A DNA stretch of 64,000 bases from the NCBI GenBank assembly GCA_965372355.1, contig CBDVBZ010000003.1, forward strand, positions 26,517-90,516, given 5' to 3'. Under the pieces are notes generated by a model. The model ran no database searches and was not told the DNA's origin. It saw nothing but the letters and a program-made list of their open reading frames with translations. Source of the stretch: an uncultured bacterium. GTDB taxonomy: Bacteria; Krumholzibacteriota; Krumholzibacteriia; WVZY01. The position numbers and the translations under genes were made by a program. Of this stretch, positions 471 through 57,594 are shown piece after piece. Numbering within the stretch: the stretch's first letter is position 1; every line of letters begins with the position of its first letter.

Positions 471-1739
471 GTGAGTGCCACTGTTCTCGCCGGTTTGATT
501 TTCCTGGTGACGTACGCGGCGATTGTCGCCTTCAAGCAATACAAGAGCCAGATCCTGTGGGGTGGTGTCGCAGCCGCGTTGGCCGCAGGGCTCATTCATA
601 CACCCGATCTTCTTTTCGATGTCAACTGGAACGTGATGGGGATCTTCGCGGGCACGTTGATCCTGTCGGAGTACTTTGTCCTGTCCCGGGTGCCGGATGC
701 CATCTCGACATGGCTTATTCGACGGACGAACACGGTCGGATCGGCCTATCTGCTCGTCTGCATATTTGCCTCGGTTCTGTCTGTCTTTATCGAGAACGTG
801 GCAACCGTCCTGATCGTTGGACCTATCATGATCGGTCTATCCAGAAAGATCGGCATCTCGCCGGTTCCAGGAATGATCGGCATCGCGATATCCTCGAATC
901 TTCAGGGAACGGCCACGCTGATCGGTGACCCGCCGAGCATGATCCTCGCCAACTATATGCAGATGAACTTCAATGATTTCTTTGTATATCAGGGCAAACC
1001 GGGGATCTTCTTTGCCGTTCAGTTTGCTGCCGTTGGTTCGATGCTGTTCCTGTATTTCGCTTACAAGAAATACAAGAACCCCATCTCGTTCGAGGGCACG
1101 GTCAAGATCCGAAGCCTCGTGCCTTTGGTCTTTCTAATAGTGATGGTTCTGGCGCTCTCGCTCGCCGTTCTCGTCGACCCGGGTTTCAAATGGTTTGGAG
1201 GAGCGTCGTGCATGGTGCTGGCCGGGCTTTGCATTGTTTTTTCACGGTTCGCGAAGGAGAAGGAGCACGAGTGGGTCCTGAGACACTATGACATCGAAAC
1301 GACCGCATTTCTCGTGGGGATATTTATCATCGTCGGTATGCTCGAACATCAGGGGGTCATCCATGCCATCGCGGACTTCCTGGCTCACAACATAGGAGAC
1401 AACCCACTCATCGCCTTCAGTGTCGTCGTGTGGGCATCGGTGTTGTTCAGCGCATTCATCGACAACGTGCCCTATCTTACCGCGATGATTCCCGTCGTGC
1501 AGCTGCTCTCTGACTCACTTGGGATAAACGTCGAGCTGCTCGTGTTCGGTCTGCTGATCGGTGCCTCCCTCGGGGGCAACATCACACCGATTGGCGCCGC
1601 CGCCAACATCGTGGCGGTCGGCACTCTCAAAAAGCACGACATCCAGGTCTCGTTCATGGATTTTGTCCGGATCGGCCTGCCGTTTACGATCATAGCGACG
1701 TTGCTTGGGTCCATCTTTATTTATCTGGTGTGGAAGTGA
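471..1739 (+). CDS. ArsB/NhaD/SLC13-family ion transporter permease
   Basis: Many hydrophobic segments; twin motifs SVFIENVAT...SNLQGTATLIGDPPS and SAFIDNVP...GGNITPIGAAAN. Confidence 0.85.
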   Translation: MSATVLAGLIFLVTYAAIVAFKQYKSQILWGGVAAALAAGLIHTPDLLFDVNWNVMGIFAGTLILSEYFVLSRVPDAISTWLIRRTNTVGSAYLLVCIFASVLSVFIENVATVLIVGPIMIGLSRKIGISPVPGMIGIAISSNLQGTATLIGDPPSMILANYMQMNFNDFFVYQGKPGIFFAVQFAAVGSMLFLYFAYKKYKNPISFEGTVKIRSLVPLVFLIVMVLALSLAVLVDPGFKWFGGASCMVLAGLCIVFSRFAKEKEHEWVLRHYDIETTAFLVGIFIIVGMLEHQGVIHAIADFLAHNIGDNPLIAFSVVVWASVLFSAFIDNVPYLTAMIPVVQLLSDSLGINVELLVFGLLIGASLGGNITPIGAAANIVAVGTLKKHDIQVSFMDFVRIGLPFTIIATLLGSIFIYLVWK

Positions 1740-3505
1740 GGTCGCTCGTGAGGTTTTCCCCAGAGCGCCGTTGTTGTCTGGTCGTGATGTTGTTGCTGAC
1801 GACGGCCCTGGTCTGCTCGTGCAGCGATGATTCGTCGAGCCCGACCCAGCCGCCCGCCGACGGCTCGGTTGTGTGGCACGTCCAGCGCACGTCGCAAACG
1901 CATCAGGCGGTGTGGGGGGCGAACGGCGCCGACGTCTTCGTCGTCGGAAACACGGCGCCGATTCTGAACTTCGATGGCACCGGCTGGCGCGCCACGACCG
2001 TTGGCAGCTTACCCGTCCTGACCGATGTGTGGGGGTTTTCCTCGAACAACGTGTTTACGGTGGGGGAGTTCGGCACGATCCTCCACCACGACGGGTCGGG
2101 CTGGACATCGATGGAATCCGGTACAACACAGTTTCTTTTTGGTGTGTGGGGTAGTCCTCCGTCCGATGTGATTGCCGTCGGATCGTTTGGGACGATTCTT
2201 CGTTTCGGCGGGTCCGGATGGAGCGAGATGATCAGCGGGACCACGGAACTGCTGCTGGGGGTGTGGGCGGCCTCGCCGAACGATGTAATTGTTGTGGGGA
2301 CGAATGGCACGCGGCTCCGCTTCGACGGACTCAGCTGGAGTCCGATGCCGGGTCTGGTGACGGAGACGTTGTCGGCGGTCTGGGGTACTTCGGCTAGCAA
2401 TGTGTATGCGGTAGGCGATGGCGGGAGCATTCAACGATACAACGGTTTGGCGTGGAATCCCGTGTCGAGCGGCACGACGCAGCAGCTTATGAGTGTTTGG
2501 GGTAGTGCCGCGGACGATATCTACGCTGTGGGAGACTCGGGCACCGTCGTGCACTACAATGGATCGAGTTGGCAACCCGACAGCAGCGGAACAACGATGG
2601 ACCTGCTCGGCGTCCGCGGCACCTCGGCCGCGGATGTCATCGCCGTGGGTGCAACCGGAACGATGATCCGATTCGATGGCTCGGTCTGGCAGCCTGCGAT
2701 CAGCAGCGGTCCAGCGGGGTTCATTCTCGATATGTGGGGCGAATCGGACACACTTGTCATTGCCGTCGGTGAAGCCGGTTCCATTCTCCGCTACGACGGC
2801 CGGTTGTGGGTGCCGGCAGCCAGCGGGACCGCTGACCATCTGTGGGGTGTTTGGGGTGAGACGAGAAGCGACGTTTTTGCCGTTGGATCATCCGGTACGA
2901 TCCTTCATTTTGATGGCTCGGCGTGGAATCCGATGACGAGCGGCACGAGCCAGCAGCTCATGAGCGTTTGGGGAAACACGGGCCGCGACGTCTTTGCCGT
3001 CGGCGAGTCGGGAACGATCCGGCACTACAACGGGGTGGAGTGGAGCGCGATGCAGAGTGGCACCAGCGAGCGGCTTTTTGGGGTGTGGGGGAGCGGTCCA
3101 TCCAATGTGTTTGCCGTCGGCGAGTCGGGGACAATCCGGCACTACGATGGCGCGAGTTGGAGCCCGTCGGGCAGTGGGATCTCGTTCGCGTTGTTATCGG
3201 TCTGGGGAAGCGCCCCCAACGACGTTTTTGCAGTCGGGGCGGGTGGTAAGATCATCCACTACGACGGCGCGAGTTGGGTCGAGATGAACAGCGGGACGCA
3301 GCGCAGTCTCTGGGATGTTTGGGGTGGTGATCCCGGCCAGGTCTTCGCGGTCGGGGACGGTGGGACCATACAGCGGTTCGACGGTTCAACATGGCGGACA
3401 ACATTGAGCGGTACCGCGCTATCGCTACGCGCCGTGTGGGCGGTTCCCGATCGGGCATTCTCGGGAGGCGCGAGCGGTATCATCGTCGGCGCCGCCAGTC
3501 CGTAG
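1736..3505 (+). CDS. Lipoprotein of 14 ~39-aa VWG..D(V)FAVG..G.I.HYDG..W repeats (probable double 7-blade beta-propeller)
   Basis: Lipobox-like LVCSC; 14 countable repeats; GTG at 1736 overlaps the permease TGA (start uncertain, 1730-1748). Confidence 0.8.
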   Translation: MRSLVRFSPERRCCLVVMLLLTTALVCSCSDDSSSPTQPPADGSVVWHVQRTSQTHQAVWGANGADVFVVGNTAPILNFDGTGWRATTVGSLPVLTDVWGFSSNNVFTVGEFGTILHHDGSGWTSMESGTTQFLFGVWGSPPSDVIAVGSFGTILRFGGSGWSEMISGTTELLLGVWAASPNDVIVVGTNGTRLRFDGLSWSPMPGLVTETLSAVWGTSASNVYAVGDGGSIQRYNGLAWNPVSSGTTQQLMSVWGSAADDIYAVGDSGTVVHYNGSSWQPDSSGTTMDLLGVRGTSAADVIAVGATGTMIRFDGSVWQPAISSGPAGFILDMWGESDTLVIAVGEAGSILRYDGRLWVPAASGTADHLWGVWGETRSDVFAVGSSGTILHFDGSAWNPMTSGTSQQLMSVWGNTGRDVFAVGESGTIRHYNGVEWSAMQSGTSERLFGVWGSGPSNVFAVGESGTIRHYDGASWSPSGSGISFALLSVWGSAPNDVFAVGAGGKIIHYDGASWVEMNSGTQRSLWDVWGGDPGQVFAVGDGGTIQRFDGSTWRTTLSGTALSLRAVWAVPDRAFSGGASGIIVGAASP

Positions 3506-4905: not shown

Positions 4906-5091
4906 TACGCTGCGCTCGCTCCCCTCAGACGGTGCCAGAGAGTTGGGCACGGCGCGCGTTCCGCTGCTGCTCTGCCGTTCCGCAACTTCTTGTGAAATAA
5001 TAGAATAAACACTGTGGTCGTGGCTGGAGCGGTTTTTGCAGCAGGCGGGAGGATGACTCCAATTCTGCCACCGTCACAGAGTGAGGCGCCA

Positions 5092-6303
5092 ATGAATACC
5101 AATGCCCAACGTGTCATGGGTCGACTCGGAACCGCAATTCTCGTTCTGTTCCTCCTGGTCCCCGCCTGTTCGGGGCCCTCGGAGGTCGCCGAGGGAGTGA
5201 TTACCGTGGGCGCGCCGGAACCGCGCAATGCCACGACGGTTCAGGAACTATCGCAGCGCCTTATCTGGAGGACGACCGGAGCGACAGGGGATCTCGCCGG
5301 TTACGATGTCCATTTCGGCACGACCCCGGACCCTCCGCTGGTTGAAGAGAACTACCAGAAGATGTACTACGACACCGGAGACCTCATCGTCTCGAAGACC
5401 TATTTCTGGCGTGTCGTCGCGAAGAACACCGACGGCAACTCATTCCCCGGGGATGTCTGGGTCTTTTCGACGCGTGATGGTGTGTGGGGCGAGGAAAACA
5501 GCGGGACGACCCAGAACCTGTCCGCCGTATGGGCGATTACAGGGGATGATGCCTTCGCCGTGGGAACCGGTGGGGCGATTCAGCGATGGGATGGCACGTC
5601 GTGGACCGGGATGAACAGCGGGACTCCGCTCAATCTCTTTGGGGTATGGGCGTTGTCCGCGACCGAGGCCTACGCGGTTGGCAGCAGCGGCACAATCCGG
5701 CACTGGGACGGCGCCCGGTGGGATATCGAGTCCACCACCGCAGTGTCGCATTTTCGCGCCGTATGGGGCAGTGCCGCCGATGATGTGTTCGTTGTCGGCG
5801 ACAACGGCGCCGCCTGGCACTACGATGGTGATGATTGGGATCGCGAGATCACGGGGACCAGCCGACCGCTTCTCGCCATCCACGGGACATCTGAAGACAA
5901 CGTCTTCGCCGTGGGTACGTTTGGCACCGTTTTGAGATACGACGGTGAGGATTGGAGCGAGATGAACAGCGGGACATCGGCAAACCTCGCCGGTGTCTGG
6001 TGTATCTCTCCAAACAACGTCTTCGCCTGCGGCGCTTTCGGTGCGGTTATTCGATACGACGGAAACAGTTGGACTGAAATGGTTACGAATTCCGCCAACG
6101 GGTTGAACGCCATCTGGGGCAGCGCTCCGACAAACGTGCTCGCCGTGGGGCAGTTCGGATCCATCCTCCGTTTCAACGGAACCGAGTGGTACAGTATGGT
6201 CAGCAATACCGCCGTACCGCTCACCGGCGTGTCAGGAGCGGCACGGGGCGATGTCCATTCCTGCCGCCAGACCACGTCCAAAATCATGCGTTACCGTCCC
6301 TGA
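5092..6303 (+). CDS. Lipoprotein with Fn3-like domain and 7 VWG-type beta-propeller repeats
   Basis: ATG 5092 with GAGG RBS; lipobox VPAC; YDVHFG...YFWRVVAKN segment; 7 repeats paralogous to 1736-3505. Confidence 0.8.
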   Translation: MNTNAQRVMGRLGTAILVLFLLVPACSGPSEVAEGVITVGAPEPRNATTVQELSQRLIWRTTGATGDLAGYDVHFGTTPDPPLVEENYQKMYYDTGDLIVSKTYFWRVVAKNTDGNSFPGDVWVFSTRDGVWGEENSGTTQNLSAVWAITGDDAFAVGTGGAIQRWDGTSWTGMNSGTPLNLFGVWALSATEAYAVGSSGTIRHWDGARWDIESTTAVSHFRAVWGSAADDVFVVGDNGAAWHYDGDDWDREITGTSRPLLAIHGTSEDNVFAVGTFGTVLRYDGEDWSEMNSGTSANLAGVWCISPNNVFACGAFGAVIRYDGNSWTEMVTNSANGLNAIWGSAPTNVLAVGQFGSILRFNGTEWYSMVSNTAVPLTGVSGAARGDVHSCRQTTSKIMRYRP

Positions 6304-20961: not shown

Positions 20962-22512
20962 GTGGCAGTTCAGCGGATACTCTGGGTGGATGACGAGATC
21001 GAGCATCTCAAGGCGCACGTGCAGTTCCTCGAGGGAAAGGGCTACGAGGTCCAGTCCGCCACGAACGGCGAGGATGCGATCGAGATGGTGCGCACACGCA
21101 CGTTCGACGTGCTGCTTCTCGATGAAAACATGCCCGGTATGGGCGGTTTGGAAACACTGAACGAGATCAAGGAAATCGACCCCGGTCTTCAAGTGGTGAT
21201 GATCACGAAGAGCGAGGAAGAGCAGCTGATGGACGATGCCATCGGTATGAAGATCGCCGGGTATCTGCTCAAGCCGGTTAGCCCGATGCAGATCTACTCA
21301 GCGTGCAAGCGGATACTCGATTCGGAACGCCTGCAGGAGGAACGCTTTTCACAAGAATACGTGAGAGAGTTCAACAACATGACAAACCTGATCCACGAGG
21401 CGTCGTGGGACAGCTGGCTCCAGATACACCGCAGGCTGTGCTCGTGGGACCTGGAGTTCGACCGTTTTCGCGAGAGCGGCTTGACCAGCACGCACGAGGA
21501 TCAGAAACAGAACGCAAACCGGCAGTTCGGCCGCTTTATCGAGAAACAGTATCCAGAGTGGCTCCATTCCGAAGATCGTCCTCCGCTAAGCACCGATGTG
21601 TTTTCGAAGTTCGTCGCCCCACATTTGAAGGCGGGGGAGAACGTTTTCTTTATCGTGATCGACTGCGTCCGGCTCGATCAGTGGCTCGTCATCGAGGAGT
21701 TACTGCGGGACGAATTCGAGATCCAAAAGGACTACTATCTCTCGATTCTTCCGACGGCCACACCGTACGCACGAAACGCGATCTTTAGCGGTCTGTTCCC
21801 AGACGACATCGCCAGGAAGTATCCGGAGAAGTGGCTCGAGAAGTCGAAGGACGAGATCAGCAAGAACCGATACGAGGAGTTCTTTCTGAAGCAGCAGATG
21901 CGCAGACACGGGTTGTCGCCGGAGCGGACGAAGTACATCAAGATCTACGCGGTTCGGGAGGCCGAAGAGCTTAGAAAACGGATCGATAACCTGGTGACAC
22001 TGCCCTTCGTAGCGCTCGTCTTCAACTTTGTCGATATGCTCACGCACGGCCGGAATCAATCCGAGATTCTGCACCAGATCGCACCCGACGAATCGGCGTT
22101 CCGATCGGTGGTGCGCTCGTGGTTCTCTCACTCGGTTCTGCTCGACATCTTTAGGGAGCTGGCGAGAAAAAAGGTAAGAGTGGTCATGACCACCGATCAC
22201 GGATCGATTCTCGGCAAGCGCGCAAGTCTCGTTCACGGAAGGCGGGACACATCGGCGAACCTGCGCTACAAATTCGGGGACAACCTGAAATGCGATGGGC
22301 GGCAGGCGATCATCACGCGTCGGCCAGGAGTGTTTCGGTTGCCCGCCGAATCGAAGACAAAAAGCTACCTGTTCGCCAAAGAGTACTACTATTTTGTCTA
22401 CCCGACGAATTATCGGGAATACGAGAACAAATACCAGGGCAGTTTTCAACACGGTGGGGCCTCGCTCGAAGAAATGATACTGCCGTGTCTTACGGCTACA
22501 CCAAAGCCCTGA
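20962..22512 (+). CDS. porX: PorX-family response regulator (REC + PglZ/alkaline-phosphatase domain)
   Basis: REC WVDDE, LLDENMP; IVIDCVRLDQW, LPTATPYARNAIF, VDMLTH, TTDHG, FQHGGASLEEM. Confidence 0.85.
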   Translation: MAVQRILWVDDEIEHLKAHVQFLEGKGYEVQSATNGEDAIEMVRTRTFDVLLLDENMPGMGGLETLNEIKEIDPGLQVVMITKSEEEQLMDDAIGMKIAGYLLKPVSPMQIYSACKRILDSERLQEERFSQEYVREFNNMTNLIHEASWDSWLQIHRRLCSWDLEFDRFRESGLTSTHEDQKQNANRQFGRFIEKQYPEWLHSEDRPPLSTDVFSKFVAPHLKAGENVFFIVIDCVRLDQWLVIEELLRDEFEIQKDYYLSILPTATPYARNAIFSGLFPDDIARKYPEKWLEKSKDEISKNRYEEFFLKQQMRRHGLSPERTKYIKIYAVREAEELRKRIDNLVTLPFVALVFNFVDMLTHGRNQSEILHQIAPDESAFRSVVRSWFSHSVLLDIFRELARKKVRVVMTTDHGSILGKRASLVHGRRDTSANLRYKFGDNLKCDGRQAIITRRPGVFRLPAESKTKSYLFAKEYYYFVYPTNYREYENKYQGSFQHGGASLEEMILPCLTATPKP

Positions 22513-35656: not shown

Positions 35657-37069
35657 ATGTCACTTGATTTGTCCAAAGTAATGTACGCAAAGACTGTGCT
35701 CGATACGATCGGCGGCACGCCATTGGTGAAGCTGAACAACGTGACGAGAGATGTGAAGGCCACTGTCCTGGCAAAGATCGAGTCCTTCAACCCGGGAGGA
35801 AGTGTCAAGGACCGAATCGGATCTCACATCATCGCGGACGCCGAGAAGAAAGGGGACCTCAAACCAGGTGGCACTATTGTTGAGTCGACATCGGGCAACA
35901 CTGGAGTGGGTTTGGCACTGGTTGCCGCGATCAAGGGTTATAAAGCTGTCTTCACCATGCCGGACAAGATGAGCCAGGAGAAGATCCAGTTGCTCAGGTC
36001 GTACGGCGCGAAGGTGATCACTTGTCCGACCGCTGTTCCCCCGGAATCCGACGAGAGCTATTACACTGTGGCCAAACGGATCGTCGCGGAAACACCCAAC
36101 TCCATCCTCGCGGATCAGTACTACAATCCGCTGAATCCGAGGGCGCACTACCTGACAACCGGCCCCGAGATCTGGGAGGCTACTGGAGGCCAGATCGGAT
36201 ATTTTGTCTGCGGTATCGGTACCGGAGGTACGATCAGTGGGGTCGGCCGCTTCCTCAAGGAAAAGAACCCGCAGGTCAAGATCATCGGCGCCGATCCCGA
36301 AGGGAGCATTCTCCGGGAGTATTTCTATACCAAAGAGCTGGGGGAGGCCCGCCCGTACCTCGTCGAGGGTATCGGCGAGGATATAGTGCCCGGGACCTTC
36401 GAGCTCGAGTATATCGACGACATCTTCACCGTGAGTGATCAGGAGTCGTTCAGTATGGCGAGGCGTTTGTCCCGGGAAGAGGGACTGATGGTAGGTGGGT
36501 CTTGCGGTACCGCCGCGCACGTCGCGCTCGAGCTCGCCCGGGATCTGGACAAGGATGCCCTGGTCGTGGTGCTTCTCCCCGACAGAGGTGAGAGATACCT
36601 CAGCAAGTTTCATTCTGACGAGTGGATGCAAAAACACCACATGCTCGACGCGGAGTATTTGACGGTTGGTAACCTGCTGCGAGAGAAGGCGGGCAAAATG
36701 CCGGTTGTCGCGTATGTGAATGTCGACGACAGCATCCAGACGGCCGTCGAGCTCATGAAGAAGTACAATGTGACGCAGGTGCCGGTGAAAAAGGGAGACG
36801 AGTGGGTGGGCAAGCTCACCGAATGGTATTTGCTCGATCAACTACTGGAGCGGAAGGTGTCGGCCGACGAACTGGTGGGCAACGCGATGGACAAACCGTT
36901 CCCCGTACTCGGACCGGATGCAAGCTACTCGGAGGCGCTCAAGCTGTTTTCCGAGCGCAACATGGCGATCCTGGTCGTGGATGGCAAAGAGACGGTTGGC
37001 ATCGTCACCAAATCCGATCTCGTGGAGACCATACTCCACGCTCTCGGCCGGACCGACGAACGCTCCTAG
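35657..37069 (+). CDS. cbs: Cystathionine beta-synthase (PLP domain + C-terminal CBS pair)
   Basis: NPGGSVKDR, ESTSGNTG, GTGGT, EGIG, LLPDRGERY, CBS domains. Confidence 0.9.
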   Translation: MSLDLSKVMYAKTVLDTIGGTPLVKLNNVTRDVKATVLAKIESFNPGGSVKDRIGSHIIADAEKKGDLKPGGTIVESTSGNTGVGLALVAAIKGYKAVFTMPDKMSQEKIQLLRSYGAKVITCPTAVPPESDESYYTVAKRIVAETPNSILADQYYNPLNPRAHYLTTGPEIWEATGGQIGYFVCGIGTGGTISGVGRFLKEKNPQVKIIGADPEGSILREYFYTKELGEARPYLVEGIGEDIVPGTFELEYIDDIFTVSDQESFSMARRLSREEGLMVGGSCGTAAHVALELARDLDKDALVVVLLPDRGERYLSKFHSDEWMQKHHMLDAEYLTVGNLLREKAGKMPVVAYVNVDDSIQTAVELMKKYNVTQVPVKKGDEWVGKLTEWYLLDQLLERKVSADELVGNAMDKPFPVLGPDASYSEALKLFSERNMAILVVDGKETVGIVTKSDLVETILHALGRTDERS

Positions 37070-43302: not shown

Positions 43303-43890
43303 TCACAGCCCGAGAACGTCGGAAACCCCTCGCATGGCGTCGATCACGTTCTGGATGTGATCCTGGAGAGGCATCCCCATTCCCTCGGCGCCCTCGCGGA
43401 TCTCGTCGCGGTTGACGGAACGCGCAAACGACTTGTCCTTGAGCTTCTTCTTGACCGACTTGACCTTGACGTCCTCGACACGCTTCGAGGGTCTGACGAG
43501 CGCAACGGCCGTCACCATGCCGCAGAGCTCGTCGACGGCAAAGAGGGTTTTCTCCATCTTTGTGTCTCGCGGCACGTGGGTGTGGCTGGCGTGTGACAAA
43601 ATGGCCTTCACAAATGCCTCGTCATAGCCCCGCGAGCGGAGGATCTCGGCTCCCTTGAAGGGATGATCCTCGAGAGAGGGGTACTGTTCGTAGTCAAAGT
43701 CGTGGAGCAATCCCAGGACCCCCCAGAGCTCCTCATCCTCGCCAAAAATGTGCGCGTAGTGCCGCATGGCCGCTTCCACGGCCAGTGCGTGCTTGACGAG
43801 GTTCTCGTTCTTCGTGTACTCGGTCAGCAGGTTGAATGCTTCCTCGCGGCCCGGAGCTTTCACGGGGTATCCTCCATTCGGTGGGTTCAA
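43303..43890 (-). CDS. HDIG-type HD-domain phosphohydrolase
   Basis: LVKHALAVE, GLLHDFDYE, HPFKG, ILSHA, AVDEL. Confidence 0.9.
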   Translation of the reverse strand: MNPPNGGYPVKAPGREEAFNLLTEYTKNENLVKHALAVEAAMRHYAHIFGEDEELWGVLGLLHDFDYEQYPSLEDHPFKGAEILRSRGYDEAFVKAILSHASHTHVPRDTKMEKTLFAVDELCGMVTAVALVRPSKRVEDVKVKSVKKKLKDKSFARSVNRDEIREGAEGMGMPLQDHIQNVIDAMRGVSDVLGL

Positions 43891-43960: not shown

Positions 43961-45748
43961 ATGAACGATAATAGCACGCGAAAGAAAGAGCGGCGAAAGG
44001 CGCTCGCGGCGGTAGGCCGCTATCTTGCCCGTTACAAGATCAGTCTTGTGATCGGCGGCATCTGCCTCGTCTTCGCCGATTCCTTTGCGCTCGTCACGCC
44101 CTGGATTCTCAAGGTTACGATCGATGACCTCCAGGGGGGAATGGTCCGTGATCGTCTCCTCTCCCTCGCGCTGCTGTTCGTCGGTATCACGATGGTCTCC
44201 GGCGTATTTCGCTTTCTCATGCGGCGCATCATGATCGGTGTCTCGCGAAAGATCGAGCTCGACATGCGTGGAGACTATTTCGCTCACCTCGAGCGACTCA
44301 GCCCGTCGTTCTACAACAAGAATCGGACGGGTGATCTTATGGCGCTCGCGACAAATGATCTCAACGCGGTTCGTTCACTGGTTGGCCCCGGCGTCATGTA
44401 TTCGCTCAATACGACGGTCGTCGGTGCCATGGCACTTTCGCTGATGATTGTTCTTTCCTGGAAGCTCACGATCGTCGCGATGCTGCCCATGGTAATCCTG
44501 GTGGTTGGCATGTATCACAGCATCAGGCTCATCCACAAGTATTTCGAAAAAGTGCAGGAGCGCTTCGCCGGACTCAACTCCCGCGCGCAGGAAAACCTCA
44601 GCGGTGTTCGAGTCGTGAGGGCATACGCGCGGGAAGAGCACGAGAGCGCCGAGTTCGAGGACGCGAGCCGGGTATACGTAAGAGCCAACATGAAACTCTA
44701 CAAGGTCCAGAGTCTCCTCCAGCCCTTGCTCACGAGTGTTGCCGGGTTGGGGGCGCTGTTCATACTCGCCTACGGTGGGAGGCAGGTGATAGGCGGGACG
44801 ATAACCCTGGGGACGTTCGTGGCCTTCACCGGTTATCTGACGATGTTGATATGGCCGATGATCGCGCTTGGCTGGGTCATGAACATCATGGAACGCGGGC
44901 TTGCGTCGATGCAGCGGATCAACAGGGTTCTCCACAGCGAGCCCGAGATAACGGATAGTGTCGCAAAGACGGGTAGTGCTGTGCCGTTTCGGGATTACTC
45001 GATCGTCTTCGAGAATGTCTCTTTTAGCTATGACCCGGATCAGAAACGAGAGCCCGTGCTGAAGGATGTCACGCTCACGATAGGCGACGGTGAGACCGTC
45101 GCCGTCGTCGGACCCACGGGAGCGGGCAAGACATCACTCGTGTCGTTGATCCTGAGGCTTTATGAGCCCCAATCGGGCCGGATCCTGGTGGGCGGCCGGC
45201 CGATCGAGAGTATTCCACTGCGCGAGCTCAGAACCCTGATCAGTCTGATCCCGCAGGATGTCTTTCTCTTCTCGCAGACAATCGCCGAAAACGTGTCGTT
45301 TGGCGTCGCAGAGCTCGGAGACAGAGAGCTCGACCGGTTTACTCGTGCGGCGGCCGTGTACGACGAGATTCAGGGCTTTCCCGGTAAGTACAAGACAATG
45401 ATCGGAGAGCGCGGCATCAATTTGTCCGGCGGGCAAAAGCAGCGGCTGGCGATAGCACGAGCACTCGCGAAGGACCCGGGTGTTTTGATACTCGACGATG
45501 CTCTCTCCAGCGTGGATACGGATACCGAGGAGAGAATTCTCACATCGCTCAGGGAGGAAATGCGAAAGAGGACATCGATCATCATCGCGCACAGAACATC
45601 GACGGTGAGGGAAGCAGACCGGATATTCGTTCTCGATGAGGGCCGGCTCGTGGAACAGGGGAGCCACAACGAGCTGGTTGCGGCTCGAGGGCTCTACGCC
45701 GACATGCATCAGAAACAGCGAATCATGTACAGCCTCGAGAGGAGCTAG
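43961..45748 (+). CDS. ABC exporter subunit (TMD+NBD, MdlA/YheI-like)
   Basis: GPTGAGKT, LSGGQKQR, LILDDALS (degenerate site typical of heterodimers). Confidence 0.93.
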   Translation: MNDNSTRKKERRKALAAVGRYLARYKISLVIGGICLVFADSFALVTPWILKVTIDDLQGGMVRDRLLSLALLFVGITMVSGVFRFLMRRIMIGVSRKIELDMRGDYFAHLERLSPSFYNKNRTGDLMALATNDLNAVRSLVGPGVMYSLNTTVVGAMALSLMIVLSWKLTIVAMLPMVILVVGMYHSIRLIHKYFEKVQERFAGLNSRAQENLSGVRVVRAYAREEHESAEFEDASRVYVRANMKLYKVQSLLQPLLTSVAGLGALFILAYGGRQVIGGTITLGTFVAFTGYLTMLIWPMIALGWVMNIMERGLASMQRINRVLHSEPEITDSVAKTGSAVPFRDYSIVFENVSFSYDPDQKREPVLKDVTLTIGDGETVAVVGPTGAGKTSLVSLILRLYEPQSGRILVGGRPIESIPLRELRTLISLIPQDVFLFSQTIAENVSFGVAELGDRELDRFTRAAAVYDEIQGFPGKYKTMIGERGINLSGGQKQRLAIARALAKDPGVLILDDALSSVDTDTEERILTSLREEMRKRTSIIIAHRTSTVREADRIFVLDEGRLVEQGSHNELVAARGLYADMHQKQRIMYSLERS

Positions 45749-45751
45749 TGG

Positions 45752-47560
45752 TTGGAGTACTTCGACGAAGATGAGGTGCAAGGAAAGCCATACGACCGGA
45801 AACTGATGGGCCGGATCATCGGTTACCTCCGCCCTTACCGGAAGTATGTTGTCATCAGCGTTATCCTGCTGCTGCTGGTCTCGCTGGTTCAGCTGGCGCC
45901 GCCCTACCTGACCAAGATCGCAATCGATCGGTATCTGGCGCCGGCCTCACCAATCGACATCGGTGCCCGCTACTCCGGGTTGATGCAGGTCGTCGGTGTC
46001 TTCTTTCTCGTGCTGCTCCTCTCTTTTGCGGCGACCTATTTTCAGATCTATGTAATGGCCTACGTCGGCCAACGGGTGATGTTCGACCTCCGTATGCAGA
46101 TTTTCAGACATCTGCAAAAAAAGGAGATCGCCTATTTCGACAAAAACCCCGTCGGCAGGCTGATGACGCGATTGACCAGTGACGTCGAGGTCCTCAACGA
46201 GACGTTGACATCGGGTGTCGTCGCCGTCTTTCTCGACCTGTTCACGCTGGTGGGGATCATGATCATGTTGTGCTATCTCAACCTGCGACTGGCGCTTGTG
46301 ACGTTCACCGTCGTGCCGTTGCTCTTTGTTGCCGCCATGATATTCCGGGCGAGGGTGCGCCACGCGTACCGTGATGTCCGAAAGCGCGTCGCATCGATAA
46401 ACGCGTTCCTCCAGGAAAACATCACCGGCATGAGCGTCGTACAGATATTCAACCGCGAAGAGGCTCAGTTCGAGAAGTTCGGCAGGCGCAACAAAAAGCT
46501 CTTTCAGGCGCACATCGATACGGTCGTGGCATACGCGGTCTTCTATCCGTTGATCGAAGTCCTCAGCGCGGTCGCGATCGCGTTGATCCTGTGGGTCGGT
46601 GGACGGGGTGTGTTGTCGAACGCCGTGACATTCGGAGCTCTGGTTGCCTTTATTCAGTATGCGCAGCGTTTCTACCGGCCGATCATGGACCTCAGCGAGA
46701 AGTACAACGTTCTGCAGTCGGCGATGGCGTCTTCCGAGCGGATTTTTGATCTCCTCGACAACGAGCCGCAGATCAAGGACTCGGCAACGCCCCGGCCGAT
46801 TCCCACCGAGTCGGCCGAAGTCGTCTTTGACAATGTCAGCTTCGCCTACAACCCCGGCGAGCCAGTGCTCCACGACGTGAGCTTCACCGTTGGAGCCGGC
46901 GAGAAGGTGGCGATCGTCGGGTATACGGGTTCAGGTAAGACTACTATTATTAATCTGTTATCGCGTTTCTACGGTGTCGGTCAGGGGAGAGTACTGATCG
47001 ATGGCACCGATATCAACGAGTATGCGCAGCGCGATCTGCATCGTTACATTGCCACGGTCCTCCAGGACGTGTTTCTCTTCTCGGGAGACATCGCCCACAA
47101 CATCCATCTCGGGGACGAGAGCATTAGCGATGAGAAAATGCGCGAAGTCTCCCAGTATATCAACGCCCACAAGTTCATCGACAGACTACCGGCGGGTTAC
47201 GGGGAGACGGTCGGGGAGCGCGGGCGCACGTTGTCGGTGGGCGAACGACAACTGTTATCGTTTGCCAGAGCGCTGGTCTACGAACCCAAGATCCTGGTAC
47301 TCGACGAAGCAACGTCGAGTGTCGACACTGAGACGGAGTACCTTGTTCAGGATGCCCTGCGAAAATTCATGTCGGGACGGACATCGATCGTGATCGCACA
47401 TCGCCTCTCGACGATCCGCTATGTCGACAGGATCATCGTGCTGCACAAGGGACGGATCATCGAAGAGGGAAGCCACAAAGAGCTCCTGAAAAAGGGCGGT
47501 CACTATTCCAAACTCTACGAGCTGCAGTACAAAGACCAGGAGATCGTGGAGGGCGCCTGA
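45752..47560 (+). CDS. ABC exporter subunit (MdlB/YheH-like)
   Basis: GYTGSGKT, LSVGERQL, LVLDEATS, IAHRLST; start could be TTG 45752 or adjacent GTG. Confidence 0.93.
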   Translation: MEYFDEDEVQGKPYDRKLMGRIIGYLRPYRKYVVISVILLLLVSLVQLAPPYLTKIAIDRYLAPASPIDIGARYSGLMQVVGVFFLVLLLSFAATYFQIYVMAYVGQRVMFDLRMQIFRHLQKKEIAYFDKNPVGRLMTRLTSDVEVLNETLTSGVVAVFLDLFTLVGIMIMLCYLNLRLALVTFTVVPLLFVAAMIFRARVRHAYRDVRKRVASINAFLQENITGMSVVQIFNREEAQFEKFGRRNKKLFQAHIDTVVAYAVFYPLIEVLSAVAIALILWVGGRGVLSNAVTFGALVAFIQYAQRFYRPIMDLSEKYNVLQSAMASSERIFDLLDNEPQIKDSATPRPIPTESAEVVFDNVSFAYNPGEPVLHDVSFTVGAGEKVAIVGYTGSGKTTIINLLSRFYGVGQGRVLIDGTDINEYAQRDLHRYIATVLQDVFLFSGDIAHNIHLGDESISDEKMREVSQYINAHKFIDRLPAGYGETVGERGRTLSVGERQLLSFARALVYEPKILVLDEATSSVDTETEYLVQDALRKFMSGRTSIVIAHRLSTIRYVDRIIVLHKGRIIEEGSHKELLKKGGHYSKLYELQYKDQEIVEGA

Positions 47561-47561
47561 C

Positions 47562-47672
47562 GGTCGTGGGTGGCGTCGTCCCGGTCCGCGCGCAGCCTGT
47601 CCTGGAAGGGCGTCAGCGAGCACGGCTGGGCTGTTCGGCAACCCCCTCCGGGGACAGGCAGGACCCGCGGCC
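47562..47672 (+). repeat. Structured intergenic repeat, copy D
   Basis: Stem GGTCGTGGGT/ACCCGCGGCC (two U.G); same core; carries inserted GCCTGTCCTGGAAGGGC (47595-47611). Confidence 0.8.
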
Positions 47673-47692
47673 AGCCCAAGGCACGGAGATAG

Positions 47693-48853
47693 ATGCAAGC
47701 GATTGATTTTGTTATTGATACGCTGTCTCATTTTGTGAGGGTCGGGGAGGGGCCGCCGCCGGGCATCCCGGCCACGATCGACTCTGACTTCGAGCGCGAA
47801 CTGACGTGGCTCTGTGAGTGGCACGCGTTGACGCCAACTGTCCTCGCATCGCTCGAGAGACTTGCGCTGCGTCCGCGGATTTCACGAATCACCCGGGCGC
47901 GGATCGAAGCTTTGGCCAATGCATCAAGCTCGTTGACGTGCGACGTGCTGGCGACAGCCGCTTCGTTGGCCGAACGGTTCGAGGAGGGGGGCATCGAGTG
48001 CCTCTTTCTCGGTGGCACGCGGTTGGCCGACGGGGTGTACCCGGAGGCGAAACTCAGACCCGTTGAGAGAATCGATGTGCTTGTACGGGAGGACGATTGG
48101 CCGGCGGTGATCGAACGATGTCAAAAAGAGGGATTCCGTCTGGCACCCGGACAGCCGTTTTGCCGCACGGGCGAGGAAGCACTCATCTACTATCAGCATT
48201 TCGCGCCGTGCGTCCTCGAGAACGACAAGGGCGAGCGTTTGTGTGTTCGAATGCGGATGTTTGATCTTGGCGAGCCCGACAAAACCGAGCCCGCCTGGAA
48301 ACGGGGGCGGAAGTCCGCGCGGACGGGTGTCCTGCACACCGGGCCCGAGGATGAGTTGATCCACTCGTGTCTCACATACAATATGACTGATTTCGGCAAG
48401 CTGATTCACGCCGTCGACATCGGCCTGATCGTCAACCGCTTTCGGGACGATATGAATTGGGGCTACGTGAGAGAGCGTCTCGTGTCAAAATCCGTGTATA
48501 CCGCCGTGTTCTTCACGATGAACAATGTCGCCCAGTGGCTGAAGCTCGATCGATCGGCAATCGGGTTGGAAAGCCCTGGACGGGTCCAGAAGAAGATTTT
48601 TAACACGTTATGGCACGCGGACTACGACAGCTTCGCGATGCGCCGACCGGAGCGGATGCACAGGCTCCGTTTCTATCTCTTCGAAATGGGTCGCTGGAGA
48701 GAGAAGTTGCGGTTCTTCGCCGCCCTGATGTCGCCAAAACCCGAGTGGGTCGCCGCATTCTTCGATCGGCCATACCGGCCGTGGTTGAAACTCAGGTTTG
48801 TCATGCTCACGCTCAGAAATCGCGTCGGGTTTCGACTGCCGGGGAATCCATGA
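47693..48853 (+). CDS. NTP_transf_5-like nucleotidyltransferase family protein, divergent active site
   Basis: H.L.P, FLGGTRLA..VYP...LRPVERIDVLV, DELIH..LT, DIGL. Confidence 0.7.
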   Translation: MQAIDFVIDTLSHFVRVGEGPPPGIPATIDSDFERELTWLCEWHALTPTVLASLERLALRPRISRITRARIEALANASSSLTCDVLATAASLAERFEEGGIECLFLGGTRLADGVYPEAKLRPVERIDVLVREDDWPAVIERCQKEGFRLAPGQPFCRTGEEALIYYQHFAPCVLENDKGERLCVRMRMFDLGEPDKTEPAWKRGRKSARTGVLHTGPEDELIHSCLTYNMTDFGKLIHAVDIGLIVNRFRDDMNWGYVRERLVSKSVYTAVFFTMNNVAQWLKLDRSAIGLESPGRVQKKIFNTLWHADYDSFAMRRPERMHRLRFYLFEMGRWREKLRFFAALMSPKPEWVAAFFDRPYRPWLKLRFVMLTLRNRVGFRLPGNP

Positions 48854-49086
48854 AGCCGGACATCGTCGTGGATACAAGAGGCCTGTTCTGTCCCGCCCCC
48901 ATCATCAAGACTTCTGAAGCCATGCGCTCGATCGACACCGGCGGAGTGGTCGAGGTCATATCCGATGATCCGGCCATCGAGTTCGATATGCCGGCGTGGT
49001 GTGAGAGCCAGGGGCACACGATCGAATCGATCACGATCGAACGTGATGCGTTCCTTTACCTCGTAAAGAAAACGGGTGGGGAATGA
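48850..49086 (+). CDS. tusA: TusA/SirA-family sulfur carrier
   Basis: DTRGLFCPAPII, VISDDP...DMPAWC; ATGA overlap with upstream stop. Confidence 0.9.
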   Translation: MKPDIVVDTRGLFCPAPIIKTSEAMRSIDTGGVVEVISDDPAIEFDMPAWCESQGHTIESITIERDAFLYLVKKTGGE

Positions 49087-49171
49087 TGCCGCTGTGTCTG
49101 GACACGCCCGTGTCTTTTTGATAGTGTTGTGCAGTCGGTTTTTGCAATAGTGCTTCGGAGGTGATGAAGTA

Positions 49172-50218
49172 GTGAATACGGGCAAGAAAATCAGGCTCAC
49201 TCAGTACGCATCCTGCGCCGGTTGAGCATCCAAATTCGACGCAGCGGGACTGCGTGATATTCTGAAGGACTTCCCGGCCCAGGTGGATCCGAATCTCCTT
49301 GTCGGACACGCCGGGGCGGACGACGCCGGTGTGTATCGGATCGACGACGAGCGCGCCATCGTTATGACCGTGGATTTCTTCCCGCCCATTGTGGATGACC
49401 CGTACGACTACGGGCGCGTGGCCGCGGCGAACTCGCTGAGCGATGTCTACGCGATGGGCGCGGATCCTATTGCCGCGCTGAACATTGCGGCGTTTCCGGG
49501 CAAGGGTCTGCCCAACGAGATCCTGGGCGAGATATTCCGCGGCGGCGCCTCGGTGGCCAAGGGGGCGGGGATTGTGATCGTCGGCGGTCATACCGTCAAG
49601 GACGCAGAGCTCAAGTACGGTTTGTCGGTTGTGGGAATGGTCCACCCGAAGGAGATCGTCCAGAACTCGGGCGCGCGCGTGGGTGACAAGCTGATACTCA
49701 CAAAACCCCTGGGTACCGGTATCCTGTCGACGGCCCTCATGGCCGAAAAGCTGGCCGACGAGCACTACCGTTCGTTGATCAATACGATGACCCAGCTGAA
49801 CCGTCACGCCTCGGAGGAAATGCGGCGGCACGGCGTTCATGCGTGCACAGACATTACCGGTTATGGGTTGCTCGGTCACGCGTTCGAGGTGGCGGAGGCC
49901 GGCAACGTATCGTTGGAGATCGTCGCAGATGCCGCCCCCGTACTCCCGGGAGCGTTCGACATGATCCGCGAGGGTTTTCTTACCGGTGGTGCCAACGCCA
50001 ATCGTCATCTGATCGAGGGAGAAGTCGAGTGGAACCGCGACTACGACCAACCTCTCGACGATCTTCTCGTCGACCCCCAAACCTCCGGGGGACTCCTCAT
50101 CTCCGTCTCACCGGATCACTGCGACGCCCTGCTCGACCGCATCGTTGAGATCTACACCGACGCGGTGATTATCGGCAATGTCATCGAGAAGCGGGGACCC
50201 CTCCTCCACGTCGTCTGA
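49172..50218 (+). CDS. selD: Selenide, water dikinase; selenoprotein with in-frame UGA at 49223-49225
   Basis: RLTQYASCAG-UGA-ASK in frame with DDAGVY, TVDFFPP, ANSLSDVYAMG, GGHT, DITGYGLLGH, DPQTSGGLL. Confidence 0.93.
49233..49261 (+). promoter_or_regulatory. Bacterial SECIS-like hairpin
   Basis: ACGCAG-CGGGA-CTGCGT stem-loop; loop starts 20 nt after UGA with G at loop position 2. Confidence 0.7.
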
Positions 50219-51702: not shown

Positions 51703-54006
51703 CTATTTCAAGAATAACAGTTTGCGCGATATCGAACGGTCGCCGACGGTCAGGCGGCTGAAGTAGACGCCGCTGGGGACTCCCAGCCCATCGTCGTTGC
51801 GGCCGTGCCAGGTCGCCTGATAGGCGCCTGGTCCGATCTCGCCGTTGACGAGCGTGGCCACCCGCCGCCCCGTGATGTCGTAGATGTGGAGGGAGACCGG
51901 TACGACGGAGCCACCGCCCACCGTATACGGAATGGTCGTCTCCGGGTTGAAGGGATTGGGGTAGTTGCGCCCCAGGCTGGTGGCAAAGATGGGGGTGTCG
52001 GCGATCCCCGTCAGGGTCGTGACCCGTTCATCCTGTGAGTTGCTCCACAGGCTGTAGTGGTTTTCGGCATCCTGAGCGCGGACGAGATAGGTGAACTCCC
52101 CCGTGGCGGCCGGCGAGACAACAAGCGTCGTCCCGGCGAGGCCCGACGCCACCACCGTCCGGGTCTCGTAGACAGGCACCGGATCGATAAGATCGAGATA
52201 GATGCCCTCCTCCAGAACCGATTGATCGGTCACGTAATGCCACCTCAACAGGATGTCGCTCCCCAGGTAAGCGGATAGCGAGAACGTCGCCTGGACCCAA
52301 CCGAGGCTCGATCCGGTGATCCCGTTGCCGAGATTGTTCCCGTTCGGGTCGACATCCGTTGTCAGGTTGCCCGCAACAGACGACCAGACGAGGCCCCCGT
52401 CGGAGCTGACCTCGACATAGGCATAGTCCCAGTGGGTTTCGATGTTGTACCAGACCCAGGTTGAAAACGTCTCGGTCGCCAGTGTGACCCGGTAGAACGT
52501 TGCCGTTTCCAGACGACTCGAATTGTTGTCGGTCTCGCCGGAATAGTAGCTCCCCGTACCCTCGTATGCCCGTGTTGTGGAAAGGGTAAACCCGGCGTAG
52601 TTCCAGAGGCTCGAGACCGCATTGGCGTTGTCCTGAACCGTAGAGAGGTTCTTGTATTCGACGACCTCGTATTGAACCGGCGGGTTGGGGTCGGTGGCAT
52701 CCGTTCCCGACCACGTCAGGCGGTACTGGGGCCAGGTCAGCCCGGCATGGTCCGCCGGCTGCAAGGTCGGCGTGTAGGGCCCGAGGGTTCGGTGTGGGTT
52801 GTCCGCCAGCTCGAGGAGCGTCATGTTCATCGGTAGAAGCAGATCGAATGTCGGTTGAATCATCGTATCCGGTGGCCCAAAACCACCCTGTTCATACGAG
52901 TTGACCTCGGGTGTGTAGAGAAGGAAAGACGGCTTTGTGACATCCTCGCCATAGGCCCAGTCGTCGGAGTCGCCGTTGACGGTATAGATCGCACCCATCG
53001 CCGCATTGCCCACGAAATAACCGTTGGTGCTCGCCAGCGAATCGCCAAGCGCCAGAAAAAGATCGTGGTCCGGTGTGTAGAAATAATCGTATCCCCAGGG
53101 AAAGAGCAGCAGCTCGCCATAGCTGTGATACGAGAACCCCACCACAAACTCGCGCGTGGCACAGAAGTCCCGGATCACCTGGGTCTCGGGTTCGGAGAAG
53201 GGTCCCGTCCCGCGGTAGGTGATCCACGACGGCGTTGGCGATGAGCCGATGTCATCGTAGCCCCACTCGTAGCCAAAATTGCGGTTCAGATCGACGCCGA
53301 ACGACCCATCACCGTTGTCGCGGCGGTTCTTTCGCCACCATTCGGACCAGTGGATGCCGATGTGGTTGTTCTCCACATACACATGTCCGTCCGGGTTGAG
53401 CATGGGCAGAATAAAGATCTCGCGGTTGTCCACGAGGTTCGCCACCGTTGGGTCCGAGATGTAGTGGTCGAGGAGATACACGGCAAACCGCAGAGTGAGG
53501 TCCACCGTCATGATCTCGCGGGCGTGCAGGTTGCCCATGATCAGAACTTCCGGTTCCGACTCGTCCGTGGCGACATTGTCTGAGATTTTCAAAACGTAGA
53601 TGGTCCGACCTTCGATGCTCGTGCCGATCGACCCAAGCGAGGCCAGCGTCGGGTACGTGGTTGCGAGATCGGTGAGCACGGTCTCCATCTCGGCGTACGT
53701 ATGGTAGAGCCCCAGGTTCGCATCCAGATCCGCAGCCGCGCTCATACCGGGCGCCGCCAGCACCGATATCGGAATGTCGAGGCCCTGGAGATAGGCAAAC
53801 TGCTTGCTATCGACGACGACATCGATCATTCCATCCCTTCCCACACTCAGGATCTCGATCTGCTGCTCGGCAAGCGACCTTATGAGTTGCTTGCCCTTCG
53901 CCGGCAGGCGAACGAGCGTCCGGTCATTCGTGGCCGCGATGGCGGAGTGAAGCAGAAATAGCGATACGAGAAGGCAGGTCAGAACGGCTGCGGCTGCGCG
54001 GTGCAT
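51703..54006 (-). CDS. Secreted M14 zinc carboxypeptidase + InhA-like domain + FlgD-Ig C-terminal domain
   Basis: HAREI, NPDG, WRKNRR, GVDLNRN, FSEPET, SYHSY; WDYAYVEVS; RNYPNPFNPET...PSGVYF. Confidence 0.9.
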   Translation of the reverse strand: MHRAAAAVLTCLLVSLFLLHSAIAATNDRTLVRLPAKGKQLIRSLAEQQIEILSVGRDGMIDVVVDSKQFAYLQGLDIPISVLAAPGMSAAADLDANLGLYHTYAEMETVLTDLATTYPTLASLGSIGTSIEGRTIYVLKISDNVATDESEPEVLIMGNLHAREIMTVDLTLRFAVYLLDHYISDPTVANLVDNREIFILPMLNPDGHVYVENNHIGIHWSEWWRKNRRDNGDGSFGVDLNRNFGYEWGYDDIGSSPTPSWITYRGTGPFSEPETQVIRDFCATREFVVGFSYHSYGELLLFPWGYDYFYTPDHDLFLALGDSLASTNGYFVGNAAMGAIYTVNGDSDDWAYGEDVTKPSFLLYTPEVNSYEQGGFGPPDTMIQPTFDLLLPMNMTLLELADNPHRTLGPYTPTLQPADHAGLTWPQYRLTWSGTDATDPNPPVQYEVVEYKNLSTVQDNANAVSSLWNYAGFTLSTTRAYEGTGSYYSGETDNNSSRLETATFYRVTLATETFSTWVWYNIETHWDYAYVEVSSDGGLVWSSVAGNLTTDVDPNGNNLGNGITGSSLGWVQATFSLSAYLGSDILLRWHYVTDQSVLEEGIYLDLIDPVPVYETRTVVASGLAGTTLVVSPAATGEFTYLVRAQDAENHYSLWSNSQDERVTTLTGIADTPIFATSLGRNYPNPFNPETTIPYTVGGGSVVPVSLHIYDITGRRVATLVNGEIGPGAYQATWHGRNDDGLGVPSGVYFSRLTVGDRSISRKLLFLK

Positions 54007-54220
54007 TTGTTGCTCCTTTCGATGACCGTCGGCCTGTGGGGAAGGATTGAACTGCATTGATTATAACGTGTTTTGCGCGGCGGCACAACGGCCGTTGCTT
54101 GATGCTCGTTGCTTGACGCGACGGCGTGCCAAGGCTCTCGCATCCGCCCGCGTGCGGTGGTGTGCGATCGTGTGCGATCGCCTGCGCCCGCCTGCGGGCG
54201 TGTGCGGCGCTCGGGGAGAG

Positions 54221-56613: not shown

Positions 56614-57444
56614 ATGGAAAACCGTCTTAGAAAACATCTGGCGCTGATCAAATCACGCGCGAAGGACCTGTCGCAATCCTACAGGGGGTCTGCCGCCTGC
56701 CGGCACGGTCGTCCCATCGATCTGGCGGAAGCCGTTCCGGGTCGCGAGCAGGCGATCGACGGTGAGACATTCTATCTGATACGTGTCGAGGACAGCGCGA
56801 TTGCCGACGACGTCCCTGCGGTCACCGATCGGTTGTTGAAGATTTCTCAGCGCGAGACGTGGCCGATTATCTCTCTTGTCAAGGACCCCGGGCCGTCCAT
56901 GGCCAGCCGCATCCAGAACGACCAGGTGTGTTTTCTCGATATCGAAACGACGGGGCTCTCGCCAAACACGTATGTCTTCCTCTGTGGTTTGATGTATCTC
57001 CACGGACGTCGCTTTGTCGCCGAGCAGCTTTTTGCGCGGGACTACGCGGAAGAAAAGGGCATGCTGCTGTATCTGCGGAATATCGTCGAGCGATACCCCA
57101 TGATCGTGACGTTCAACGGTACCAGTTTTGACGTGCCCTTTCTGCAAACGCGGATGGCGGTCGCGCGCATGCAATCGATGCCGCCTTTCGAGCATGTGGA
57201 TCTGCTGGAGCCCGCACGGGAACGTTTTAGTGATGTGCTTCCCAACTGCAGGCTTGAGACCATCGAACGGCATCTGAGGGGAGTAGCGCGAAGTGGCGAC
57301 ATTCCCAGCCGGGATATACCCGAGGCGTATCACGAGTTTGTCAGAACGGGGGACGCAAGTGACATCCAGCGCGTTCTCTATCATAACCTCATGGATCTTC
57401 TCGCGATGGCGTACATGGTCAACCATCTCGCCGATCACAAGTGA
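56614..57444 (+). CDS. YprB/MrfB-like RNase H-fold DEDD exonuclease (no C-terminal TPR)
   Basis: FLDIETTG, TFNGTSFDVPF, CRLETIE, HNLMDL. Confidence 0.88.
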   Translation: MENRLRKHLALIKSRAKDLSQSYRGSAACRHGRPIDLAEAVPGREQAIDGETFYLIRVEDSAIADDVPAVTDRLLKISQRETWPIISLVKDPGPSMASRIQNDQVCFLDIETTGLSPNTYVFLCGLMYLHGRRFVAEQLFARDYAEEKGMLLYLRNIVERYPMIVTFNGTSFDVPFLQTRMAVARMQSMPPFEHVDLLEPARERFSDVLPNCRLETIERHLRGVARSGDIPSRDIPEAYHEFVRTGDASDIQRVLYHNLMDLLAMAYMVNHLADHK

Positions 57445-57526
57445 GTGCCATAAGGCCATGGTGTCGCCATCTCGCCGATCATAAGTGAGTGCCAAAGCGC
57501 CATGGTGCCGCCATCTCGCCGATCAC
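57423..57526 (+). repeat. 44-bp tandem repeat, about 2.4 copies, spanning the exonuclease stop codon
   Basis: Units 57423-57466, 57467-57510, partial 57511-57526, each starting CCATCTCGCCGATCA. Confidence 0.9.
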
Positions 57527-57594
57527 CGACGATAGTGAGAGCGGCACTATACCGCTTTGGCTGACCGCATTCGGGTGGTAGAATACCGCCAATC

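Follow-up and report, generated by a model that had tools for sequence, protein, structure and literature searches.

Described systems and the present locus

Little is understood of how cells bring reduced selenium to SelD and avoid being poisoned by it. Proteins of the TusA/SirA type have long been candidates for this step, with little biochemistry behind them; their genes adjoin selD in unrelated phyla, and from this context they were proposed to act in the selenium metabolism of every utilisation trait (Zhang et al., 2008, PMC2432076), an association later refined as YedF (Lin et al., 2015, PMC5322559). No nucleotidyltransferase is tied to selD in these two papers or in a 2022 review (PMC9312934). 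We analysed a window of 64,000 nucleotides from an uncultured bacterium of the Krumholzibacteriota (GenBank assembly GCA_965372355.1, contig CBDVBZ010000003.1, positions 26,517 to 90,516). In it, five co-directional genes encode two ABC half-transporters (ABC1 and ABC2), a nucleotidyltransferase-fold protein of the family PF14907 (hereafter NTase), a TusA-like protein and SelD. Named homologues come from metagenome-assembled genomes of Candidatus Krumholzibacteria/Krumholzibacteriia and from others labelled Latescibacteria, and the window DNA is matched in marine-sediment metagenomes.

A preliminary description of this DNA had reported the same five genes, with the same coordinates and direction, as a candidate for an undescribed selenium modification or export unit. 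The linkage of NTase, TusA and SelD on which that proposal was built holds in relatives. The proposal of a new pathway fares less well: selenocysteine (Sec) decoding accounts for selD, the TusA-selD pairing is already published, and the conserved gene order is not specific to these three genes. The five-gene run does not look like a single selenium pathway, but like a lineage-wide syntenic block of separate units. In the reading that we favour, and to which we give about an even chance, the ABC pair is unrelated, TusA and SelD form the known pairing in the service of Sec, and the PF14907 clade is probably a non-catalytic accessory translated with TusA. With the TusA-SelD pairing already known, what is new is the NTase-TusA coupling and the recognition of a degenerate PF14907 clade, and the novelty is modest.

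A Sec-containing SelD behind a single-domain TusA

SelD is an ordinary member of the Sec-containing SelD proteins of Sec-decoding bacteria. It reaches 386.9 bits with TIGR00476, for which the cut-off is 125, and contains the AIRS and AIRS_C domains (PF00586 and PF02769), and its gene starts at the GTG at 49172, behind GGAGG. Codon 18 is a TGA within the motif SCAG-U-ASK of the N-terminal glycine-rich loop, where SelD requires a Cys or Sec; E. coli SelD has Cys17 at this position. The TGA is present in all 13 orthologues in which the N-terminus could be read. An RNAalifold comparison of these 13 sequences supports a hairpin of the Sec insertion sequence (SECIS) type that starts 16 nt past the U of the UGA, with compensatory double changes in three of its six stem pairs and none of the pairs broken. 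A SelD that is itself a selenoprotein, with a conserved UGA and SECIS, implies that the lineage decodes Sec, and Sec synthesis is therefore enough to explain the presence of selD. Among metatranscriptome runs, selD was represented by only two short fragments, and such fragments occur in two runs.

No domains of the selA, selB, selU, yqeB/C or senAB type were found among the 39 larger open reading frames (ORFs) of the window, a set that leaves out ORFs of less than 200 aa outside the locus; for selU, yqeB/C and senAB this agrees with the preliminary description. A gene for tRNA-Sec (selC) was not seen in the window either. The third selenium utilisation trait (YqeB/YqeC, with selenium-dependent molybdenum hydroxylases), whose genes often accompany xdhC- or mobA-like genes near selD, was likewise not seen, as neither yqeB nor yqeC is present in the window or in the 22 related loci. 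One other gene of the window, and no more, has to do with amino acids that contain sulfur or selenium: at a distance of 12 kb from selD, positions 35657-37069 encode a PALP and CBS protein with the layout of a cystathionine beta-synthase or cysteine synthase.

As in the published SirA-like (TusA/YedF)-selD neighbourhoods, for which a selenium role was proposed from context, a PF01206 protein with the Cys of a CPxP motif is encoded directly upstream of selD. The selD start lies 85 bp past the tusA stop, as had been reported. The PF01206 match is clear (72 bits against a threshold of 28.6), and the FCPAP motif occupies residues 13-17. The protein scores 58 bits against the TusA equivalog model NF001423 (cut-off 78), and 41 and 31.5 bits against the YedF models NF008242 (cut-off 79) and TIGR03527 (cut-off 110); it consists of a single domain of 78 aa, without the DsrE-like half. 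The locus differs from the described neighbourhoods in this single-domain architecture, in having no YedE, Sec lyase, YqeB or YqeC nearby, and in the PF14907 protein that precedes TusA, which is mentioned in neither PMC2432076 nor PMC5322559. With the TusA of the E. coli sulfur relay (IscS-TusA-TusBCD-TusE-MnmA) it shares the fold family and the catalytic Cys motif, whereas no tusBCDE or mnmA lies nearby and its score stays below the equivalog cut-off. Our search for SelD neighbourhoods outside the lineage gave only two Chloroflexota loci, neither with TusA nearby, which are too few to inform. A terminator after tusA was also considered and rejected: 7 terminator-like sites were found against 5.3 expected from shuffles, and the fold of the spacer (z = -0.11) is not above chance.

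A degenerate clade of PF14907

The NTase matches NTP_transf_5 (PF14907) with an E-value of 5.8e-29 and 101.8 bits, above the gathering cut-off of 31.2. The clade to which it belongs scores 60-100 bits against this model, and canonical members of the family score 160-186 bits. The literature on the family consists of one passing mention, in a phosphonate cluster, and essentially nothing else. An AlphaFold2 model, a check that the preliminary description had proposed, is confident (predicted local distance difference test, 86.7; predicted template modelling score, 0.88) and shows a Pol-beta-like fold with the helical C-terminal domain of canonical members. Used as a Foldseek query, it retrieved the Pol-beta-type NTases LnuA, ANT(2'')-Ia and TM1012, with template modelling scores of 0.57-0.72 normalised to the target.

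We compared the motifs in an alignment of 12 clade members and 16 canonical members of PF14907. The canonical signatures are LKG, R...DIDLLV, an HF strand and an HLCxHxNxH helix. In every aligned clade member, the KG, the first Asp and all of the His are replaced: the KG position reads GG, GD, ND, DD, QD or GE; the DxD position reads [R/T/K/S/Q/A]-I-[D/E/H]; HF has become R-[M/L/F]; and HLCxHxNxH has become S-C-x-T-Y-N. The second carboxylate is a His in one member (P0031) and an Ala in another (P0026). The replacements KG to GG and DxD to RID, pointed out earlier for the window protein, are therefore real deviations from the canonical family, and they characterise the whole clade rather than a single protein. 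R122, W202, E219 and D242 are retained in the clade; D242 never varies, while at least 90% of the sequences, canonical members included, have R122 and E219. The clade has also gained an N-terminal motif of its own, TLxH...GPPPG[IV]P...FE, and it is confined to one lineage and one genomic context.

The NTase has the lowest identity to the window among the genes of the block, for example 26% where ABC2 has 67% and SelD 55%. Its ratio of nonsynonymous to synonymous substitutions (0.10-0.14) is close to that of the neighbouring genes and indicates purifying selection. With selection maintaining it, the fold kept and the signature motifs lost, we read it as a functional protein that has very probably given up canonical nucleotidyl transfer. 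The earlier wording of an altered enzyme or scaffold fits this clade-wide loss of signature residues. The point matters for annotation, as these proteins are currently named "nucleotidyltransferase family protein".

Relatives are few. Word-indexed searches gave only about 45, at 31-85% identity, and a HMMER search over 1.84 billion representatives gave 10,381 PF14907-like sequences, of which only about 35 cluster representatives match over the full length, N-terminus included. Profile and representative searches, together with scans of genome and metagenome contigs, found no clade member outside the syntenic context described below. No fusion of PF14907 to TusA or SelD was found among the clade and canonical members; the long clade members have low-complexity tails, and canonical members have GT2, methyltransferase or S24 domains as fusion partners. 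C41 was considered as a possible sulfur or selenium relay Cys of the NTase and was rejected, being invariant in the 19 closer members and replaced in two of the extended clade (P0185 and P0193).

Linkage across relatives

Linkage was scored in 22 distinct loci, including the window and its closest relative (L102). The NTase gene lies upstream of tusA in 21 of them, down to 25% NTase identity, and selD lies downstream in all 20 that extend far enough. The linkage on which the preliminary description depended is in this sense kept. Of the 21 loci with an NTase, nine share 4 or 1 nt between the stop codon of the NTase gene and the start of tusA; these nine are spread over the whole clade at 25-85% NTase identity and include members at 25-40%. 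Another six have a gap of 2-113 bp. The overlap seen in the window, an ATGA that had already been noted, recurs in this way among divergent relatives and suggests that NTase and TusA are translationally coupled. In 16 loci, 14-163 bp separate tusA from selD.

The trio also occurs in a broken block. In the complete genome CP070677.1 (4.3 Mb), NTase (40% identity), TusA (66%) and a SelD with Sec (61%) are encoded behind an SSF transporter gene and a DUF1848 gene; the ABC pair and the HD and TPR genes that otherwise precede the trio are absent from the 7.8 kb read upstream of it.

The PCC/DUF296 protein (PF03479) is a second recurrent upstream partner of TusA. Its gene stands between those of NTase and TusA in that half of the lineage which diverges more. 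In two loci (L008 and L089), the stop of the PCC gene itself overlaps the tusA start; in two others (L013 and L097), an M16 peptidase gene (858-860 aa) is inserted besides PCC.

The ABC exporter pair

ABC1 and ABC2 are adjacent half-transporters, each with a transmembrane and a nucleotide-binding domain, as in the SmdAB/MsbA-like heterodimeric exporters. ABC1 is nearest to SmdA (its best NCBIfam match, 439 bits against an equivalog cut-off of 845) and ABC2 is nearest to the MsbA-related model (466.7 against 780 bits), then SmdB; against MsbA it scores 460.8 bits (cut-off 602). They differ from these described exporters in falling below every equivalog cut-off.

The preliminary description had counted the exporter as part of a selenium unit, a role that we considered and rejected. 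A scan with ABC2 gave 80 loci, five at 74-78% identity from the same lineage and 75 at 46-55% from other phyla (Ignavibacteriota, Acidobacteriota, Bacteroidota, Calditrichota, Balneolaceae, Rhodothermales and others). The five same-lineage loci have NTase and TusA downstream, and four of them SelD as well; the contig of the fifth (L012) ends after TusA. NTase, TusA and SelD are all absent downstream of ABC2 in each of the 75 loci of other phyla, most of which, where they reach far enough, have an ABC1 orthologue (38-48% identity) upstream of ABC2. Since the pair occurs in these 75 loci without the trio, and the trio occurs without the pair in CP070677.1, a selenium export role is unsupported, and we judge ABC1/ABC2 to be a separate, general housekeeping exporter.

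Divergent from ABC1 lies an HD-domain gene (43303-43890, minus strand), with 65-88% identity in every relative carrying the ABC pair. Its product may be the exporter's true functional partner or its regulator. The spacer between ABC2 and NTase measures 132 bp in the window, 141 bp in the closest relative and 18-54 bp in most relatives. In a source-like metagenome run (X1), positions 47557-47777 have a contig depth of 32.5 vs about 5 (about six-fold) and occur on several variant contigs, which suggests that a short dispersed repeat, over-represented in the source metagenome, has been inserted here.

Interpretation of the locus

In the favoured reading, the CPxP Cys of TusA would bear reduced selenium (or sulfur) and pass it to the N-terminal Sec/Cys loop of SelD, which would in turn produce selenophosphate. 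Sec synthesis would be at least one use of this product, as SelD is itself a selenoprotein with a SECIS. The PF14907 protein would be a lineage-specific paralogue that has kept the Pol-beta-like fold and lost the nucleotide- and metal-binding signature residues. The stop/start overlap makes its joint translation with TusA probable. Most likely it would not be a nucleotidyltransferase but would serve TusA as an accessory or adaptor without catalysis, such as a partner in docking or regulation; it would be useful but dispensable for TusA and SelD. Several observations weigh against this reading. TusA misses the equivalog cut-offs of TusA and YedF alike, and its substrate may be either selenium or sulfur. 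No Cys is conserved across the extended NTase clade, and the NTase is not an obvious member of a relay; an altered active site is conceivable from the acidic residue 128 together with D242, E219 and R122, which do not vary. The junctions are not fixed either: a PCC gene separates NTase from TusA in four loci, and an M16 peptidase gene and a PCC gene do so in two; L095 has no NTase, with ABC2 and TusA 186 bp apart and TusA and SelD kept; and four loci have TusA and SelD set apart by unrelated genes that span 1-3 kb and are partly on the opposite strand (a C5-epimerase with an opposite-strand asparagine synthase; PhoX with CN_hydrolase; opposite-strand CheR/CheD; an opposite-strand ORF). The whole 14-kb block, in the order response-regulator kinase, TPR/PatA_N, HD, ABC1, ABC2, NTase, TusA, SelD, M23 and usually M14, is syntenic in the lineage; because unrelated genes are included, the linkage may reflect inherited gene order rather than function. 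Finally, the NTase-TusA pairing is not repeated in any independent lineage covered by our searches and contig scans; independent recurrence was looked for and rejected, with clade members found only inside this same block. Conservation alone cannot separate function from inherited gene order. The recurrent NTase-TusA overlap and the trio left intact in the rearranged genome CP070677.1 point to function; the junction insertions and the one NTase loss point the other way.

The main rival, possible if on the unlikely side, is that NTase, TusA and SelD are unrelated neighbours kept together by slow rearrangement, with TusA in an ordinary sulfur relay (tRNA thiolation, molybdenum cofactor) and the NTase in a role of its own, such as envelope or glycan chemistry. 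The equal conservation of the unrelated flanking genes, the insertions at both junctions and the NTase loss in L095 are what this would predict; the TusA equivalog, rather than YedF, gives TusA its best score, and the GT2 and methyltransferase fusions of canonical PF14907 suggest an envelope or glycan role for the NTase. Unrelated neighbours would account less well for a stop/start overlap held in nine loci over such a range of NTase identity, for a trio that stays together where the block is broken, and for the recurrence of SirA/TusA-like genes by selD in unrelated phyla (PMC2432076). Should inherited synteny be all that links these genes, there would be nothing out of the ordinary in the locus. 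The NTase might instead be an enzyme with a rebuilt site (acidic 128 and D242, E219, R122, R188) that modifies TusA or TusA-bound sulfur or selenium, for example by adenylylation or phosphoryl activation, and so feeds SelD or another acceptor. Purifying selection, the conservation of D242, R122 and E219, and translational coupling to TusA would agree with such an enzyme, which we nonetheless regard as quite improbable: the G[GS]-type loop is unconserved, the first carboxylate is lost throughout the aligned clade and the second in P0031 and P0026, and the NTase is the fastest-evolving gene of the block and is dispensable in L095. Least credible, and in our view very improbable, is the proposal that exporter, NTase, TusA and SelD form one undescribed system for selenium modification or export. 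The five genes are co-directional, tightly spaced and all conserved in most relatives, but the exporter and the trio occur without each other, the Sec trait explains selD, the NTase is without the catalytic signature residues of its family, and SelD alone matches a selenium-specific family model.

A more novel reading, which we think unlikely, would make the GPPPG-motif clade a dedicated partner of a selenium-specific TusA, either a non-catalytic scaffold or a rebuilt-site enzyme that loads or gates selenium transfer from TusA to SelD. If true, selenophosphate synthesis in bacteria would have a further, new accessory component, seen in Krumholzibacteriota. A single-domain TusA fixed beside a Sec-type SelD and a protein of an uncharacterised family offers a small three-gene set for the study of selenium trafficking in vitro.

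Other features of the window

The features of the locus, and the PCC/DUF296 genes of the related loci, are listed in Table 1.

Table 1. Coordinates of the locus features in the window and of the PCC/DUF296 genes in related loci (positions of the latter are those of each locus).
Feature	Position	Strand	Basis
ABC1, half-transporter (transmembrane and nucleotide-binding domains) of a heterodimeric ABCB-type exporter	43961..45748	+	PF00664 and PF00005 (ABC_membrane and ABC_tran)
ABC2, partner half-transporter	45752..47560	+	PF00664 and PF00005 (ABC_membrane and ABC_tran)
ABC2-NTase spacer, 132 bp	47561..47692	.	Gap table, metagenome depth
NTase-fold protein, 386 aa, lineage-specific PF14907 clade	47693..48853	+	Pfam NTP_transf_5, clade alignment
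ATGA shared by NTase stop and tusA start	48850..48853	+	Sequence
TusA/SirA-like protein, single domain, 78 aa, Cys14 in CPAP	48850..49086	+	PF01206
Weak terminator-like hairpin followed by TTTTT, just 3' of tusA	49100..49115	+	Pattern scan, not significant
SelD, selenide water dikinase, Sec at codon 18	49172..50218	+	TIGR00476, translation
UGA (Sec) codon 18 of selD	49223..49225	+	Sequence, translation, orthologues
SECIS-like hairpin, 6-bp stem, loop CGGGA	49239..49255	+	RNAalifold, 13 orthologues
PCC/DUF296 gene	L008 9204-9644		
PCC/DUF296 gene	L089 9202-9642		
PCC/DUF296 gene	L090 2508-2939		
PCC/DUF296 gene	L098 8529-8951		
PCC/DUF296 gene	L013 8283-8717		
PCC/DUF296 gene	L097 8513-8950		

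Two repeat arrays were found elsewhere in the window. A coding repeat of 117 nt (39 aa) occurs in eight copies, at 2051-3294 and 5902-5972, within the two large ORFs 1730-3505 and 5014-6303. These ORFs have no Pfam match, and the copies look like the repeats of a propeller-type protein. Three tandem copies of a 44-nt repeat (57423-57554) span the 3' end of a gene with an RNase_H_2 domain and the spacer before a DEAD/MZB helicase gene; several relatives have these two genes downstream of the block as well.

The ORF at 3691-4794 matches the DA1-like and LIM domains, both from mostly eukaryotic families, and is thus an unusual gene to meet in a bacterium. At 20962-22512, a response regulator of the PorX type is encoded that includes a PglZ domain, and at 51703-54057 an M14 peptidase with an FlgD_ig-type C-terminal domain; together these two proteins fit a setting with secretion of the type IX (T9SS) kind.

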